Counted from the first letter of the stretch, positions 33,744-40,065 are shown. The stretch: DNA of 64,000 nt from an uncultured Fibrobacteraceae bacterium (GCA_964524645.1 CAZGEC010000002.1:5005-69004), one strand, 5' to 3'. Translations and numbers: made by a program. The notes: generated by a model not told the origin, from the sequence alone.

Positions 33744-35261
33744 TCAAGGAACCTGGATCGCCGTGAAGAAGGTGACCTGTCCGCGGCGCACCAGCAGGGC
33801 CGCGGATTCCCCGCTCTTGAGCCGGGACACGACCTTGTTGAACTCGTCCACCGACGTGATCTCGGTGCGATTCACTTCCTGGATGAGATCGCCACGCTGC
33901 AGGCCCGCATCCTCACCCGCCGATCCCGCCGCCACGTCCGCCACCAGCGCGCCCTGCTGATTCTCGTAGCCCAGCTGCTGGGCCAGAGCGGGCGTCAGGC
34001 TCTGGATGGTCAGGCCGAGCTTCTCCTGCATCTGGGGTTGCTGCTGCGGGGACTGCTGCTCGCCGGCCTTGGCGTTCTCCGGACGCTCGCCCAGCTTCAC
34101 GTCGATCGTCAGCTCCTTGCCGTTGCGCAGCACGGTCAGCTTGACCGTCGAGCCGGGCTGCATCATGGCGACCTTCTCCCGCAGCTCGACGCTGTCCTTG
34201 ATCTTCTCCCCGTTCAGCTCGGTGAGGACGTCGCCGCGCTGCACGCCGGCCTTGCCGGCCGGTCCGTCCGGCACGACGTCGCCCACCAGGCAGCCCGAGG
34301 TCGTCTTCAGGTTCAGGGCCGCCGCCAGGCTCTCGTTGATGTCCTGCGGAACGAGCCCGAGGTAGCCGCGCGTGACCTTGCCGTGGGAGATCAGGTCTTC
34401 CATGACGGTCTTGGCCATGTTGATGGGAATCGCGAAGCCGATGCCGACGTTCCCGCCCGACGGGGTGGAGATGGCGGTGTTGATGCCGATGACGTTGCCG
34501 TCCAGATCGGCGAGGGCCCCGCCGCTGTTGCCGGGATTGATGGAGGCATCGGTCTGGATGAAGTCCTCGTAGTCGGCCAGGCCCACCGAGGAGCGACCCT
34601 CGGCGCTGATGATGCCCGCGGTGACGGTGTGCAACAGCTGGAACGGGTTGCCCACGGCGATGACCCACTCGCCGATCTTCAGCTCGTCCGAGTTGCCCAG
34701 CGTGGCGGCGGGAAGATCGTCGCCCTCGATCTTGATGACGGCCAGATCCGTCTGCGGATCCGTGCCGACGATCTTGGCGGAGTACTTCTCGTTCTTCTGC
34801 AGGAGAACCGTCAGCTTGTCGGCCCCATGCACCACGTGGTTGTTGGTCAGGATGTATCCGTCCTTGCTCACGATCACGCCGCTGCCGAGGCTGTGCACGG
34901 TCTCCTTTTGATCCTGCTGGGGAACCGTGCCGAAGAAGCGCTTGAAGAAGTCGTCGCCGAAGAACTGACGGAAGGGGCTGTCCGGCGAGCCGAAGGGGCT
35001 GGCCACCTCCACCACCTGCTCGGCGTAGATGGGGATGACCGAGGGGCTGACCTTGCTCGCCGCGGCCTCGAAGACGGCGCTGAGCTGGTTGGCCAGGGTA
35101 CGGCCCTCGCTCGTGGCGGCCAGCGAGGATTGAGCTTTGGCACTGTCCTGCCGCGTGCAGGCGGGCACGAGAGCCAGTCCCGTGACCGCGGCCACCGCCA
35201 GCGCCAACCCCATGGTCGTGATGCGGCGATGATGACGAAGGCTACTCTTCACTCGAAGCAT
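33744..35261 (-). CDS. htrA: DegP/HtrA (Do-family) serine protease with two PDZ domains
   Basis: Contains GSGVIVSKDGYILTNNHVV, DLAVIKI and INPGNSGGAL, plus two PDZ regions. The start is at Met (MLRVKSS...) 35261, with AGGAGG upstream. Confidence 0.9.
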   Translation of the reverse strand: MLRVKSSLRHHRRITTMGLALAVAAVTGLALVPACTRQDSAKAQSSLAATSEGRTLANQLSAVFEAAASKVSPSVIPIYAEQVVEVASPFGSPDSPFRQFFGDDFFKRFFGTVPQQDQKETVHSLGSGVIVSKDGYILTNNHVVHGADKLTVLLQKNEKYSAKIVGTDPQTDLAVIKIEGDDLPAATLGNSDELKIGEWVIAVGNPFQLLHTVTAGIISAEGRSSVGLADYEDFIQTDASINPGNSGGALADLDGNVIGINTAISTPSGGNVGIGFAIPINMAKTVMEDLISHGKVTRGYLGLVPQDINESLAAALNLKTTSGCLVGDVVPDGPAGKAGVQRGDVLTELNGEKIKDSVELREKVAMMQPGSTVKLTVLRNGKELTIDVKLGERPENAKAGEQQSPQQQPQMQEKLGLTIQSLTPALAQQLGYENQQGALVADVAAGSAGEDAGLQRGDLIQEVNRTEITSVDEFNKVVSRLKSGESAALLVRRGQVTFFTAIQVP

Positions 35262-35329
35262 GGCTGGATACCTCCTGCCGTGATGATTTCGGACCCGAGA
35301 GTCTCCCGGATGCCCCATGTATAGAACGA

Positions 35330-37312
35330 TCACTCCGCTCCTGCTACCACCACCGGCCCGGGGCGTGTGCCCAGGATGGCGAGGATTCCCAGATCGTCGA
35401 TGGTCTCCTGCTCCAGCAGCGTCCGGGCCAGCTTCTCGAGCTTGTCCCGCTTGTCCCGCAGGAGCTTCTTATCCTCTTCGTAGCAATTGTTGATCAGTTC
35501 GAAAACCTCCTCGTCGATCAGTTCCTCGATCTTGTTCGAGTGGGGCTGGCTCTGAGGTCCCTGGCCGAGGAAAACGCTCTGCTGGGGCCCGACGAGCGAG
35601 ATGTTGGGCATCTTCCTGCTCATGCCGTAGACCGTCAGCATCTCGCGGGCGATCTTCGTGGCGCGCTCCAGGTCGTTGGAGGCGCCGGTGGAGATCTCGT
35701 CAAAGGTGACCTCCTCGGCCGCGCGCCCGCCCAAAAGGCCCTTGATGCGACCGATCAGCTCGGTGCGCGACATCAGGTAGCGGTCTTCCAGCGGGGTCTG
35801 CAGCGTGTAGCCCAGGGCCCCGATGCCCCGCGGCACGATGGAGACCTTCTGGACCGGATCGGCGCCCGGCGTAAAGTGGCCGATGATGGCGTGGCCGGAC
35901 TCGTGGTAGGCGACGACCCGTCGCTCATACTTGTTGATCAGCTTGTTGCGCTTTTCCAGGCCGGCGACGACCCGCTCGATGGCCTCCTGGAAATCGTTGA
36001 AGGCGATTTCCTGGTGGCCCTTGCGCGAACCGAGCAGGGCCGCCTCGTTGCAGATGTTGGCGATGTCGGCGCCCGCAAAGCCGGGGGTCTCGGCAGCCAG
36101 CTTGTGCAGGTCGACGTCCGCGGCCAGGAGCAGGCCCCGCGTGTGGATCTTGAAGATCTGCTGGCGGCCGGTCAGGTCGGGCCGATCCACCAGGATCTGG
36201 CGGTCGAAGCGTCCAGGGCGCAGCAGCGCCTGGTCCAGCACCTCCGGCCGGTTGGTGGCCGCCATCATGATGATGCCGACCCGAGGATCGAAGCCGTCCA
36301 TCTCCGTCAGCAGCTGGTTGAGAGTGTTGTCCCGCTCGCTGTAACCCGCGGCGAAGGGGCCCTGCCCGCGCGCGCTGCCGACGGCGTCCAGCTCGTCGAT
36401 GAAGATGATGCAGGGCGCCTTCAGATTGGCCTGGGCGAAGAGGTCGCGCACCCGCGCGGCGCCGACGCCGACGAACATCTCGACGAAGTCCGATCCGGTC
36501 ATGCTGAAGAAGGGAACGTGGGCCTCCCCCGCCACGGCGCGCGCCAGCAGGGTCTTGCCCGAGCCGGGGGGCCCGACCAGGAGAATGCCCTTGGGCAGCT
36601 TGGCGCCCAGCCGCGTGTACTTGCGGGGATCCTGCAGGAAGTCGACGACCTCCTTCACCTCCTCGACGGCCTCGTCGATGCCGGCCACGTCGTTGAAGGT
36701 CACGCGCTGCGCGGTCTCGACCTCGTAGACCTTGGCCTTGTTGCGACCGATGCTCAGGACGTTCGGGCCCTTGCCCATCCTCCGCATGAGATAGCCCCAG
36801 AGCAGGAAGAGGAGGCCGAAGGGGATGATCCAGTTGAACAGGAAGTTCTCGAGCCGGTTCGAACCGAGCTTGCCCCGGTAGTCCACGTGGTGGGCCTGCA
36901 GGTCACCCAGCAGCTTGTCGTCTTGCAGGCGCACGACCTGGAACTGGAGATCCTTCTGCTTCTCGTACTTCTGCTCCCACTGGTTCAGCTTCAGCCGCCA
37001 GGGCGTGTGGCTGCCGGGCGGCACGATCTTCTTGCCGGGATCCGGCTTGGCGGCCGGGTCCTGCGCGCGGGCGGCCGCGGCCTGCTGAGCGGAATCCGCG
37101 GCCGCGCTCTTGGCAGGCGGCTTGAGCATGCCGTAGATCTTGTCCGGGCTGAGGACGATCTTCTGGATCTTGCCGGCGGCCAGATCGTCGCGGAACTGGC
37201 TGTAGGAGATCTCCTGGACGCCCGAACCGGAGAACATCATGAGGTCCAGGACCAGGATGACGCCGAGCACGATCAGGAAGTAGCGCAGGGTGAATCGGGT
37301 ACGCTTGGGCAT
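35330..37312 (-). CDS. ftsH: ATP-dependent zinc metalloprotease FtsH
   Basis: Contains [34 protein letters not shown] and the HEXXH-type HESGHAI. The start was chosen at [17 protein letters not shown]... (TM1); the track starts at 37456. Confidence 0.9.
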
Positions 37313-38514: not shown

Positions 38515-38721
38515 GTCCCCGCCGCCCGCTCCGGAAGGTCGCCGGCCCGCGCAAGCGAGGCCCAATCCACGAGCTGGCCTCCTTCTCCATCCCGGGAGCC
38601 GCCCGCAGCCCGGCGGTCCGCCGGCGCCCGGCGGAGCGGTTCGCTGTTGCATATCGCATCAGTACCTGTAGATTTGTGCGGGAGGGACGGGAAGGCCGCT
38701 GGAACCCGGGAGAACGCCCGC

Positions 38722-40065
38722 ATGAATCGAATTCTGGTCGTCGAGGACGATCGGATCACCCTGAAGAACCTGCGCAATATCCTGCGCAAGGAGGGACACG
38801 AGGTCGAGACGGCCGGCGGCGGCGAGGAGGCCTTCCGGTTGCTGGAGGCGAAGCCCTGCGATCTCGTGCTCACGGATCTCGTGATGGAGCCGGTCGACGG
38901 CCTGGCGGTGCTGACGCGGGCCAGGGAGCGGGATCCGGAGACGCAGGTGATCGTCATGACCGGCCACGCCTCGGTCTCCACCGCCATCGAAGCGATGAAG
39001 CGCGGCGCCTTCCACTACCTGCAGAAGCCCTTCCAGCCGGAAGAGGTCCGGCACCTCGTCGCCCTGGCGCTGGAGAAGCGGCGGCTCAGGACGGAGGTCG
39101 CCGACCTCAAGCAGCAGGTCGAGGCCGGGCCGCAGCGCATCCTGGGTCACAGCCCGAAGATCGTCGCCATCCGGCGCCTGATCCGGCAGGTGGCCGAGAC
39201 GGATTCGAACGTGATGATCACCGGCGGGTCGGGCACGGGCAAGGAGCTGGTGGCCTCGGCCATTCACCGGCTGAGCCGGCGTTCCGCCAGGAAGTTCCTG
39301 CCCATCAACTGCGCCTCCTTCACCGAGGACCTGCTGGCCAACGAGCTGTTCGGCCACGAGAAGGACGCCTTCACGGGAGCCACGACCACCCGGACGGGGC
39401 TGCTGGAGGCGGCGGACGGGGGGACGATCTTCTTCGACGAGGTCGGCGACATGCCCCCAGTCATGCAGGCGAAGCTGCTGCGGGTGGTCCAGGAGCGGGA
39501 GCTGATCCGCGTGGGCGGCTCCCGGCCCATTCGGATCGACGTGCGGATCATCTCGGCCACGAACAAGAACCTGCGGCTCGCCCTGCAGCACGGGAACTTC
39601 CGCGAGGATCTCTACTACCGCCTCAACGTCGTGCCCATCGACATGCCGACCCTGGCCGAGCGCAAGGAAGACATCCCCTTGCTGGTCAAGCACTTCCTGA
39701 ATCGATTCAATCGCCGGGCCCAGGCGCGGATCCTCGGCTTCACCGGCGAGGCGCTCCAGCTGCTGGGCTCGTACGATTATCCCGGCAACGTCCGCGAGCT
39801 GGAGAACATCGTCGAGCGGGCGGCTTCCCTGAGCCGCTCCGAGGTGATCGGCGTGGAGGCCCTGCCCGAGGATCTCCAGGAGCTGGAGGTCTACGCGCTG
39901 CGCCGGGGTCAGTCCCGCATCAAGACGCTGGAGGAGATGGAGCAGGAGTACATCCGGGACGTGCTGGCCCGCTGCAACCACAACAAGAGCCGGGCCGCCG
40001 AGGCGCTCGGCATCAACCGCGTCTCCCTGTACCGCAAGCTGAAGCGGACGCAGATCACCGAGTGA
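38722..40065 (+). CDS. sigma-54-dependent response regulator (REC, AAA+ and HTH domains; NtrC/Fis family)
   Basis: The receiver domain has the phospho-acceptor Asp [14 protein letters not shown]+ motifs are [14 protein letters not shown] and ESELFGHEK-like ([13 protein letters not shown]). The C-terminal HTH is [21 protein letters not shown]. Confidence 0.9.

Follow-up and report, generated by a model that had tools for sequence, protein, structure and literature searches.

Whether proteases of the membrane and periplasm can be recruited into a sigma-54 regulon by a promoter lying one gene upstream is the question raised by a locus in the DNA of an uncultured Fibrobacteraceae bacterium (GCA_964524645.1 CAZGEC010000002.1:5005-69004). 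The window, that is, the whole stretch of 64,000 nt that was analysed, carries a gene for a 321-aa protein (37505..38470, minus strand), which is followed on the same strand by ftsH and htrA. Immediately divergent from it is a gene for an NtrC-type enhancer-binding protein (EBP) on the plus strand. A first-pass annotation of this DNA had regarded the three minus-strand genes as a proteostasis operon controlled by sigma-54 and the EBP, had considered such regulation of proteases to be unusual, and had suggested that the leading gene might encode a dedicated stress sensor or adaptor. Comparison with related loci turns this guess from a single sequence into a comparative regulon prediction with GTTGCA-N3-TGCAAC as the operator, a pair of sigma-54 promoters and a partner kinase. 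It also defines a widespread gene cluster with a family of at least 216 representatives of core-less PPDK-like paralogues. Judged by its conservation, this widespread and uncharacterised cluster is likely to form a regulon under a two-component system and sigma-54. If read-through into ftsH-htrA also takes place, envelope and membrane proteases would have been recruited into this sigma-54 two-component regulon.

The Probable Sigma-54 Promoter of the 321-aa Gene

The 16-mer TGGCGGGAAACTTGCA on the minus strand (P_hyp; 38499..38514) is very probably a real sigma-54 promoter, as indicated by its sequence and its conservation. Its -24 GG and -12 GC are exactly 10 nt apart in a TGGC...TTGC context, which is the canonical spacing, and both the sequence and the coordinates (38514..38499) of the annotated motif were correct. 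On the minus strand the order is GGGGAC-TGGCGGGAAACTTGCA-ACGAACGCGACATCGCCAGGGGGCCGAG-ATG, with 29 nt of non-coding DNA between the end of the 16-mer and the ATG at 38470. The location of the motif upstream of the open reading frame (ORF) for the 321-aa protein was therefore confirmed as well. A longer ORF of 384 aa that begins with the ATG at 38659 was rejected, since the MFS... start is found in all homologues and the sequence upstream of it is not conserved as protein.

The significance of P_hyp comes from its position and its conservation across other loci, and not from the number of matches in the window. For the comparisons, the window proteins were searched by tblastn against 123 fetched loci, and a metagenome scan added 80 loci. 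In the aligned spacers of close relatives, the -24/-12 element shows at most one spacer substitution. Specifically, it reads TGGCGGGAATCTTGCA in locus L001 and is identical in L007 and L008. In L006, where the protein shares 44% identity, TGGCAGGGATCTTGCG lies 31 nt before the ATG (read directly from the sequence; MAFFT misaligned it). The AT-rich organism of L041, whose homologue is 26% identical, has the textbook element TGGCACGACTTATGCT preceded by GTTGCAAAATGCAAC. There, the homologue of the 321-aa gene lies directly downstream of the EBP gene in the same direction, and a perfect palindrome is found between the EBP gene and the -24/-12 promoter. Additionally, TGGCATTAATGTTGCA stands upstream of the homologue in a second, AT-rich lineage with a divergent EBP gene, the group of L049, L055, L057, L064 and L065, for which the element reads TGGCATTAAT(G/T)TTGC.

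Overall, the -24/-12 element is kept before homologues with 77-84%, 44% and 26% protein identity, and the flanks diverge. Words of at least 7 nt that the window and L006 have in common in co-linear positions are limited to TGCAACA, which is an operator half-site, and CAAATCTAC. Two further shared 7-mers are off-register, and the -24/-12 element of L006 recurs with different spacer bases.

The Divergent Activator, Its Likely Operator and a Probable Second Promoter

The gene that is divergent from the 321-aa gene (38722..40065, plus strand) encodes a response regulator with a receiver (REC) domain, an AAA+ sigma-54 interaction domain and an HTH_8 domain. This architecture, which had been recognised in the first-pass annotation, is confirmed by matches to Response_reg (PF00072, 9e-30), Sigma54_activat (PF00158, 1e-66), AAA_lid_14 (PF25601, 1e-26) and HTH_8 (PF02954, 1e-15). 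Moreover, the Walker A motif GGSGTGKE and the phospho-acceptor aspartate motif are readable in the translation. When the protein was compared with the named-EBP equivalogs AtoC, NtrC, NtrX, ZraR, GlrR and PspF, every score remained under the curated cut-off. The best scores were those of AtoC, NtrC, NtrX and ZraR, and the values relative to the cut-offs were 439.9/714 for AtoC, 420.9/558.6 for NtrC, 384.1/760 for ZraR and 258/443.6 for PspF. Its sequence and position make this EBP very probably the activator of P_hyp.

Inverted repeats of the kind that had been anticipated upstream of P_hyp were sought with the pattern GTTGCANNNTGCAAC, which was derived from the palindrome of L041. Allowing up to two mismatches, the window contains three such palindromes, with 1.07 expected, and none of them lies outside the two spacers on either side of the EBP gene. 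The first candidate EBP-binding site, U1 (GTTGCATATCGCATC, 38646..38660), is a GTTGCA-N3-TGCAAC-type palindrome situated about 165 nt upstream of where P_hyp is expected to start transcription, and its block is conserved in L006 too. The other two, U2 (GTTGCAGAATGTTAC, 40089..40103) and U3 (GTTACGGATTGCAAC, 40186..40200), lie upstream of a second predicted sigma-54 promoter, P_usp (GGGCCCGAGACTTGCC, 40345..40360, plus strand), which is located 35 nt upstream of the ATG of usp. When the EBP-usp spacers of the window, L001 and L002 are aligned, the conserved islands are U2, U3 and GGGCCCGAGACTTGCC.

The same architecture recurs well beyond the close relatives. All 12 independent EBP-usp spacers examined possess a -24/-12 motif at the equivalent place, for instance TGGCACTCATATTGCA or TGGCAGGCCTTTTGCA, together with one to three GTTGCA-N3-TGCAAC palindromes each, which are often arranged as a pair 22 bp apart with a third copy nearer the promoter. 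Palindromes with at most one mismatch number 18 in the 3.6 kb of EBP-usp spacers and zero in the 146 kb that make up the rest of the same loci. Likewise, strong -24/-12 matches number 10 in the 3.6 kb of spacers as against 17 in the remaining 292 kb (both strands). Because of this cross-locus enrichment of palindromes and -24/-12 motifs, the likely operator and the core of the regulon can be defined, and GTTGCA-N3-TGCAAC is likely to be the conserved operator of the EBP orthogroup.

The spacer between the divergent genes may also contain the promoter of the EBP gene itself. Its best-conserved part is the block CAAATCTACAGGTACTGATGCGATATGCAACA, which on the plus strand reads TTGCAT-N16-TAGATT (38647..38674), a candidate sigma-70-like promoter whose -35 overlaps U1. 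Within the aligned loci, CAAATCTA (reverse complement TAGATTTG) is invariant in five of five, including L006, and L040 has TTGCAT-N16-TAGAAT at the equivalent place. The candidate was read by eye; an automatic promoter scan did not call it, as it fell below the threshold. The overlap of an operator with the -35 of this candidate suggests autoregulation, as at pspF/pspA or zraP/zraSR, in which case the EBP could repress its own sigma-70-type promoter while activating the sigma-54 promoter on the opposite strand. A Bacteroidetes-type TAnnTTTG promoter for the EBP gene was dropped. The only TAnnTTTG in the 64 kb is TAGATTTG, and a motif with a single occurrence is not the general promoter motif of the host.

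The Conserved Gene Cluster and Its Arrangements

Downstream of the EBP gene, the plus strand carries a tightly packed operon (40396..48035) that extends from usp to a histidine kinase gene. It consists of usp (40396-40818), a cytidylate-kinase-like gene (40859-42370), a gene for a TauE/TSUP permease (42381-43478), a REC-only regulator (43500-43898), a kinase of about 830 aa with PPDK_N and PEP-utilizers domains (43924-46410) and a HAMP-HisKA-HATPase_c histidine kinase (about 46353-48035). This last kinase ends the operon in the window and has the same position in related clusters.

A full-length homologue of the 321-aa protein is present in 48 of the 123 loci, and the cluster around it is conserved. 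The usual order, all on one strand, is EBP, usp, a transporter (CitMHS in L040 and L042), two cytidylate-kinase-like genes, (REC), the 321-aa gene, REC, PPDK-like kinase and HAMP histidine kinase. In an alternative order, EBP and usp are followed by a fused cytidylate-kinase-like gene, TauE, the 321-aa gene, REC, the PPDK-like kinase and the histidine kinase. The window has this alternative order, except that the 321-aa gene is absent from the 21-nt junction between TauE and REC and is placed on the far side of the EBP gene. Adjacency of the EBP gene and the 321-aa gene takes more than one form: the two are co-directional in L041 and the canonical clusters, and divergent in L006, L049, L055, L057, L064 and L065.

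Where the 321-aa gene remains within the operon, no strong sigma-54 motif was found before it in the 12 canonical loci scanned. Wherever it has left the operon, namely in the lineage of the window, in L006, in L041 and in the group of L049, it has its own -24/-12 element. This pattern indicates that co-regulation with the cluster was preserved after relocation, and the retention of sigma-54/EBP control in at least three out-of-operon arrangements argues that co-expression with the cluster matters. Neither this cluster nor the core-less paralogue was found to be described in the literature that was searched. It is conceivable, if rather unlikely, that the cluster represents an undescribed signalling pathway, in which a swivel-histidine kinase dependent on phosphoenolpyruvate (PEP) or ATP and its core-less paralogue would act on stand-alone receivers or on a transported metabolite, and which in this bacterium would be wired to membrane and periplasmic proteolysis through the FtsH-HtrA pair behind P_hyp.

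The 321-aa Protein

The protein encoded downstream of P_hyp has no match in Pfam or NCBIfam, and fold searches returned only a generic helical bundle. Close relatives are few, with only five in an index of 5.8 billion proteins. A profile search of 1.84 billion representatives found at least 216 relatives, 70 of them with E < 1e-30 and most of them 300-350 aa in length. The same search also gave N-terminal matches in proteins of 500-880 aa, and the ones that were sampled carry PPDK_N and/or PEP-utilizers domains.

The nature of the protein became apparent from a profile-profile comparison with an alignment of 63 PPDK-like proteins, which included that of the window. Residues 2-100 correspond to residues 8-105 of the PPDK-like kinase (probability 96.6%, E = 6e-10), and residues 108-321 correspond to residues 542-800 (probability 96.2%, E = 2.5e-9). 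The homology is seen by profile-profile comparison alone, as a direct BLASTP of the 321-aa protein against the PPDK-like protein of the window gave no match. Neither PF01326 nor PF00391 has a match in the 321-aa protein or in its full-length homologues. The protein thus has the N-terminal helical and C-terminal domains of the PPDK-like kinases without the ATP-grasp or swivel-His domain, and by these profile alignments it is a paralogue of the cluster's PPDK-like kinase that lacks the catalytic core. Because the ATP-grasp and phosphohistidine domains are absent, it cannot be a swivel-His kinase.

These results do not support the suggestion that the leading gene encodes a dedicated stress sensor or adaptor, and the gene is not specific to proteases. 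Its homologues are found in at least 40 other loci within a cluster of the form EBP, Usp, cytidylate-kinase-like, transporter, REC, the gene itself, REC, PPDK-like kinase and histidine kinase, with no proteases nearby, and the protein is a PPDK-like paralogue.

Its N-terminal domain is also encountered elsewhere. A scan of genome contigs found no full-length orthologue of the 321-aa protein and only N-domain matches, which were in PPDK-like proteins of Desulfomonilaceae, Syntrophaceae and Acidobacteria. In the corresponding loci (L009-L036), PPDK-like proteins of about 850 aa have this N-terminal helical domain. In many cases, the locus also carries an EBP gene whose product is 45-50% identical to that of the window. 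This pattern suggests that related modules without the core-less paralogue are common.

Proposed Regulation of the Locus and of ftsH-htrA

In the favoured explanation, the histidine kinase that ends the plus-strand operon would phosphorylate the REC-AAA+-HTH activator. The activator would bind the GTTGCA-N3-TGCAAC palindromes, as the comparison of related loci suggests, and remodel sigma-54 RNA polymerase at two promoters. From P_usp, it would turn on usp, the cytidylate-kinase-like gene, TauE, REC, the PPDK-like kinase and the histidine kinase, and from P_hyp the 321-aa gene. This last gene, which in most lineages lies inside the long operon, appears to have moved to the divergent side here while keeping sigma-54/EBP control. 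Its own promoter and operator would retain that control after relocation, with the operator overlapping the probable sigma-70-type -35 of the EBP gene. Finally, the ftsH-htrA pair would probably receive read-through from P_hyp when the system is on, and it appears to have a conserved upstream element of its own. Read-through is proposed because no terminator was found on the minus strand from the 321-aa gene to htrA. That this is a locus of a widespread two-component/sigma-54 regulon seems probable. The motifs with their conservation, the genes present and the domain homology were observed; within this proposal, we infer the steps of binding, activation, autoregulation and read-through.

Both proteases score above their curated cut-offs. 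FtsH (660 aa; 35330..37312, minus strand) possesses the Walker A sequence GPPGSGKT and the zinc site HESGH, and scores 751.6 bits with TIGR01241 (cut-off 600). HtrA (505 aa; 33744..35261, minus strand) is a DegP-type Do protease with two PDZ domains, a lipobox-like signal (LVPAC) and the motifs NNHVV, DLAVIK and GNSGGAL of the His-Asp-Ser triad, and scores 514.3 with TIGR02037 (cut-off 416.2). These scores confirm the annotated succession of ftsH and htrA behind the 321-aa gene on the same strand. The 321-aa gene and ftsH are 192 nt apart, and ftsH and htrA 68 nt. In L001-L004 and L008, which are all the relatives long enough to show it, the EBP gene is likewise divergent and the 321-aa gene, ftsH and htrA follow one another on one strand. 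The annotated hypothetical-ftsH-htrA operon under sigma-54 and the EBP stands in part. The shared strand and the conserved order hold, and the promoter and the activator very probably do; co-transcription is no more than plausible, the 192-nt gap contains a conserved element, and the linkage is limited to one lineage.

Several findings weigh against the favoured explanation, and they are considered here with the rival explanations. According to the strongest of these, P_hyp drives the 321-aa gene only, and ftsH-htrA is a separate unit outside the EBP regulon that is transcribed from the element in the 192-nt gap by a housekeeping or alternative sigma factor. This alternative differs from the favoured explanation only in the read-through step, and its chances are slightly less than even. 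Its principal support is a block of about 50 nt (37403..37454, minus strand) that is possibly the promoter or operator of ftsH itself. The block shows almost no variation across the window, L001 and L008, while the flanks diverge, and it is unique in the window. A 1-nt indel that directly follows it in L001 marks it as non-coding. A conserved element in this gap argues for an independent ftsH-htrA promoter.

The distribution of the genes points in the same direction. Among the 123 loci, matches to ftsH and htrA occur only in the window's own lineage, and the link between cluster and proteases is absent from all other lineages. In the other divergent lineage, what comes after the homologue of the 321-aa gene is either an IS200-like transposase with a toxin-antitoxin pair or a TonB receptor. 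The closest FtsH homologues in other organisms have 67-69% identity and adjoin htrA or belong to a DnaJ-Hsp20-Lon-FtsH-...-HtrA cluster. In L124, for example, ftsH-htrA follows a phosphorylase gene. Since the pair is found elsewhere without this cluster (L124, L126), it appears to be an older stress-type unit. The region of L126 (1-9218; FtsH with 69% identity) encodes, in order, a Sigma70_r4 protein, DnaJ, an unknown protein, Hsp20, Lon, FtsH, a rubrerythrin-like protein, an unknown protein and HtrA, with a SpoIIE phosphatase further on.

The separate unit is opposed by the lack of a detectable terminator after the 321-aa gene, by the gene order on one strand in every relative long enough to show it, and by the failure of the scan to find a sigma-70-like promoter. 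In addition, the block matches none of the promoter consensuses that could be tried. The 10-mer CTGGCGGGAA is common to the block and the -24 region of P_hyp and has three copies in the window, where 0.24 are expected. A second sigma-54 promoter within the block was nevertheless rejected, because the -12 GC is absent in three of three lineages, and a reading as an ECF-like (extracytoplasmic-function) promoter, GGAAA-N17-CGTC, was dropped because the CGTC is not conserved. An N-terminal extension of FtsH from the GTG at 37456 was rejected given the 1-nt indel of L001 and a gene call that starts at the conserved ATG. A structured RNA was rejected as well, since the fold is no better than that of shuffled sequences (z = +1.1). 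No terminator was found in the block, and the only Rfam match of the window at the gathering threshold is a thiamine pyrophosphate (TPP) riboswitch. The sequence TGGCCCGGACGCTGCT (35430..35415), which lies at the 3' end of ftsH, was considered as a promoter of htrA and treated as coding-sequence noise. In sum, read-through from P_hyp into ftsH-htrA is plausible and no more so than an independent promoter, and control of the proteases by the EBP is about evenly balanced.

A second rival accepts that P_hyp depends on sigma-54 and assigns its activation to another EBP elsewhere in the genome, the adjacent EBP controlling its own downstream operon only. Upstream of P_hyp there is only one copy of the operator, and it has two mismatches (10 of 12 positions agree), whereas canonical spacers have two or three copies. 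Furthermore, bacteria with many EBPs often cross-wire them. Against this, members of the 321-aa family adjoin an EBP gene in several different arrangements, L006 retains the U1 block, and the perfect palindrome of L041 lies after the EBP gene and before the promoter, so that this rival is improbable.

The activator itself also shows a departure from the norm. Its L1 loop, which contacts sigma-54 (residues ~235-240), reads DAFTGA instead of GAFTGA. Within the orthogroup the loop is [G/D/E]A[F/Y]TGA, including members that lie beside textbook -24/-12 promoters, and the F/Y-T-G-A core is kept. Because such variants adjoin textbook promoters, DAFTGA gives little reason to doubt sigma-54 dependence. 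No protein with the Sigma54 domain of rpoN was found among the scanned ORFs of the window, and with no rpoN gene within the window we infer sigma-54 in this genome from the EBP alone.

Lastly, the P_hyp motif, counted within the window, is not beyond chance. TGGC-N7-TTGCW has one match in the 64 kb compared with 0.66 expected from shuffles, at least one match occurs in 48 of 100 shuffles, and a crude weighted scan yields many weaker GG-N10-GC matches in coding DNA at 70% G+C. That TGGC-N7-TTGCA is a chance match in G+C-rich DNA without promoter function is nonetheless very improbable, as the element stands at the same place in at least five independent lineages, with different spacer bases and always beside an EBP gene, and the same architecture is found in all 12 EBP-usp spacers.

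Comparison With Known Systems

In the ZraPSR system of Escherichia coli and Salmonella, the target gene and the regulator operon are divergent, and the spacer between them contains inverted-repeat operators, with sigma-54 promoters pointing both ways. The locus described here resembles it in having a histidine kinase and an NtrC-type REC-AAA+-HTH activator, a divergent target, candidate operators in the spacer, probable sigma-54 promoters in both directions and an output that may relate to the envelope and protein quality. However, the EBP is not an orthologue of ZraR (384 bits vs 760), and the 321-aa target is not ZraP-like, having no Pfam or NCBIfam match. The regulator operon also differs in that it encodes Usp, a cytidylate-kinase-like protein, TauE, REC and a PPDK-like kinase.

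Psp is a membrane-stress response whose activator, PspF, lacks a receiver domain and is kept under control by PspA, which binds it. The PspF/pspABCDE system likewise combines a divergent EBP gene and a sigma-54 target in one spacer, with an operator over the sigma-70 promoter of the EBP gene, for which there is a candidate here. In contrast to PspF, the EBP of the window has a REC domain and a probable partner kinase, and its score with the PspF model is 258 vs 443.6. The 321-aa target is not PspA-like by Pfam and NCBIfam, and no PspA homologue is present at the locus. The sigma-54 dependence of the pspA/PspF system has been described, and envelope functions are often linked to sigma-54 (PMC4551910).

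Sigma-54 acting upstream of proteostasis genes, in place of sigma-32 or sigma-E, has a precedent in the HsfB/HsfA pair of Myxococcus xanthus. According to the account in PMC3892784 (its reference 10), this NtrC-type sigma-54 activator of the two-component kind governs lonD, a heat-shock protease gene. As far as that account goes, the target there is Lon and not FtsH or HtrA, and the PPDK-like/REC/Usp cluster is absent. Considering lonD in Myxococcus, as reported in that source, and the general association of sigma-54 with the envelope (PMC4551910), the description of EBP/sigma-54 control of proteases as unusual was overstated. The circuit is of a classical type, and it is no surprise in kind, since stress and envelope genes are already known to be controlled by sigma-54. 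Literature searches for sigma-54 together with ftsH or htrA found nothing direct.

Other parts of the locus also have parallels. Accessory pairs of ftsH and degP/htrA occur in stress islands known as the transmissible locus for stress tolerance or protein quality control (PMC8290217). The likeness is that FtsH and DegP/HtrA are encoded as a stress-related pair, and it is a resemblance only: the locus described here has neither the sHsp-ClpG (small heat-shock protein and ClpG) core nor other genes of these islands. In Desulfovibrio, TSUP/TauE permeases are known targets of sigma-54 control (PMC4641369). The 321-aa protein, for its part, shares the N-terminal helical and C-terminal domains of kinases of the PpsA and rifampicin phosphotransferase type (PPDK_N plus PEP-utilizers) and lacks their ATP-grasp and phosphohistidine domains.

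Other Features of the Window

The TPP riboswitch mentioned above (28848-28936, plus strand; RF00059, 71.3 bits) lies directly upstream of a gene for a CarboxypepD_reg/Plug TonB-dependent receptor (about 29015-31519). This is followed, by synteny with L001, by a thiamine pyrophosphokinase gene and an SSF transporter gene (32279-33664). From this gene content, the region looks like a riboswitch-controlled thiamine-uptake cluster.

On the minus strand, 20362-24168 encodes a C25 (gingipain-like) peptidase of 1268 aa and 24427-26580 a second large protein. FlgD_ig domains are found in both, and the second also has a Por_Secre_tail sorting domain for type IX secretion. Together with the G+C content of 70%, these two proteins point to a high-G+C bacterium with type IX secretion.

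A gene of the Hsp20 small heat-shock family is located at 12272-12709 (minus strand). CTTGAAT and TGGCAAGGGCAATTCA are present in the spacer upstream of it, and neither convincingly matches sigma-32 or sigma-54. At the left edge of the window, 427-1596 (minus strand) encodes a protein with an HDOD domain, which is a signalling domain. The region 48298-56800 has long ORFs without Pfam matches and with an unusual composition by codon position, the first-position G+C being about 0.9, and its frames and gene calls are uncertain. Beyond it, 56813-60136 (plus strand) encodes a radical-SAM activase and then a PFL-like glycyl-radical enzyme (714 bits), which together suggest an anaerobic lifestyle.

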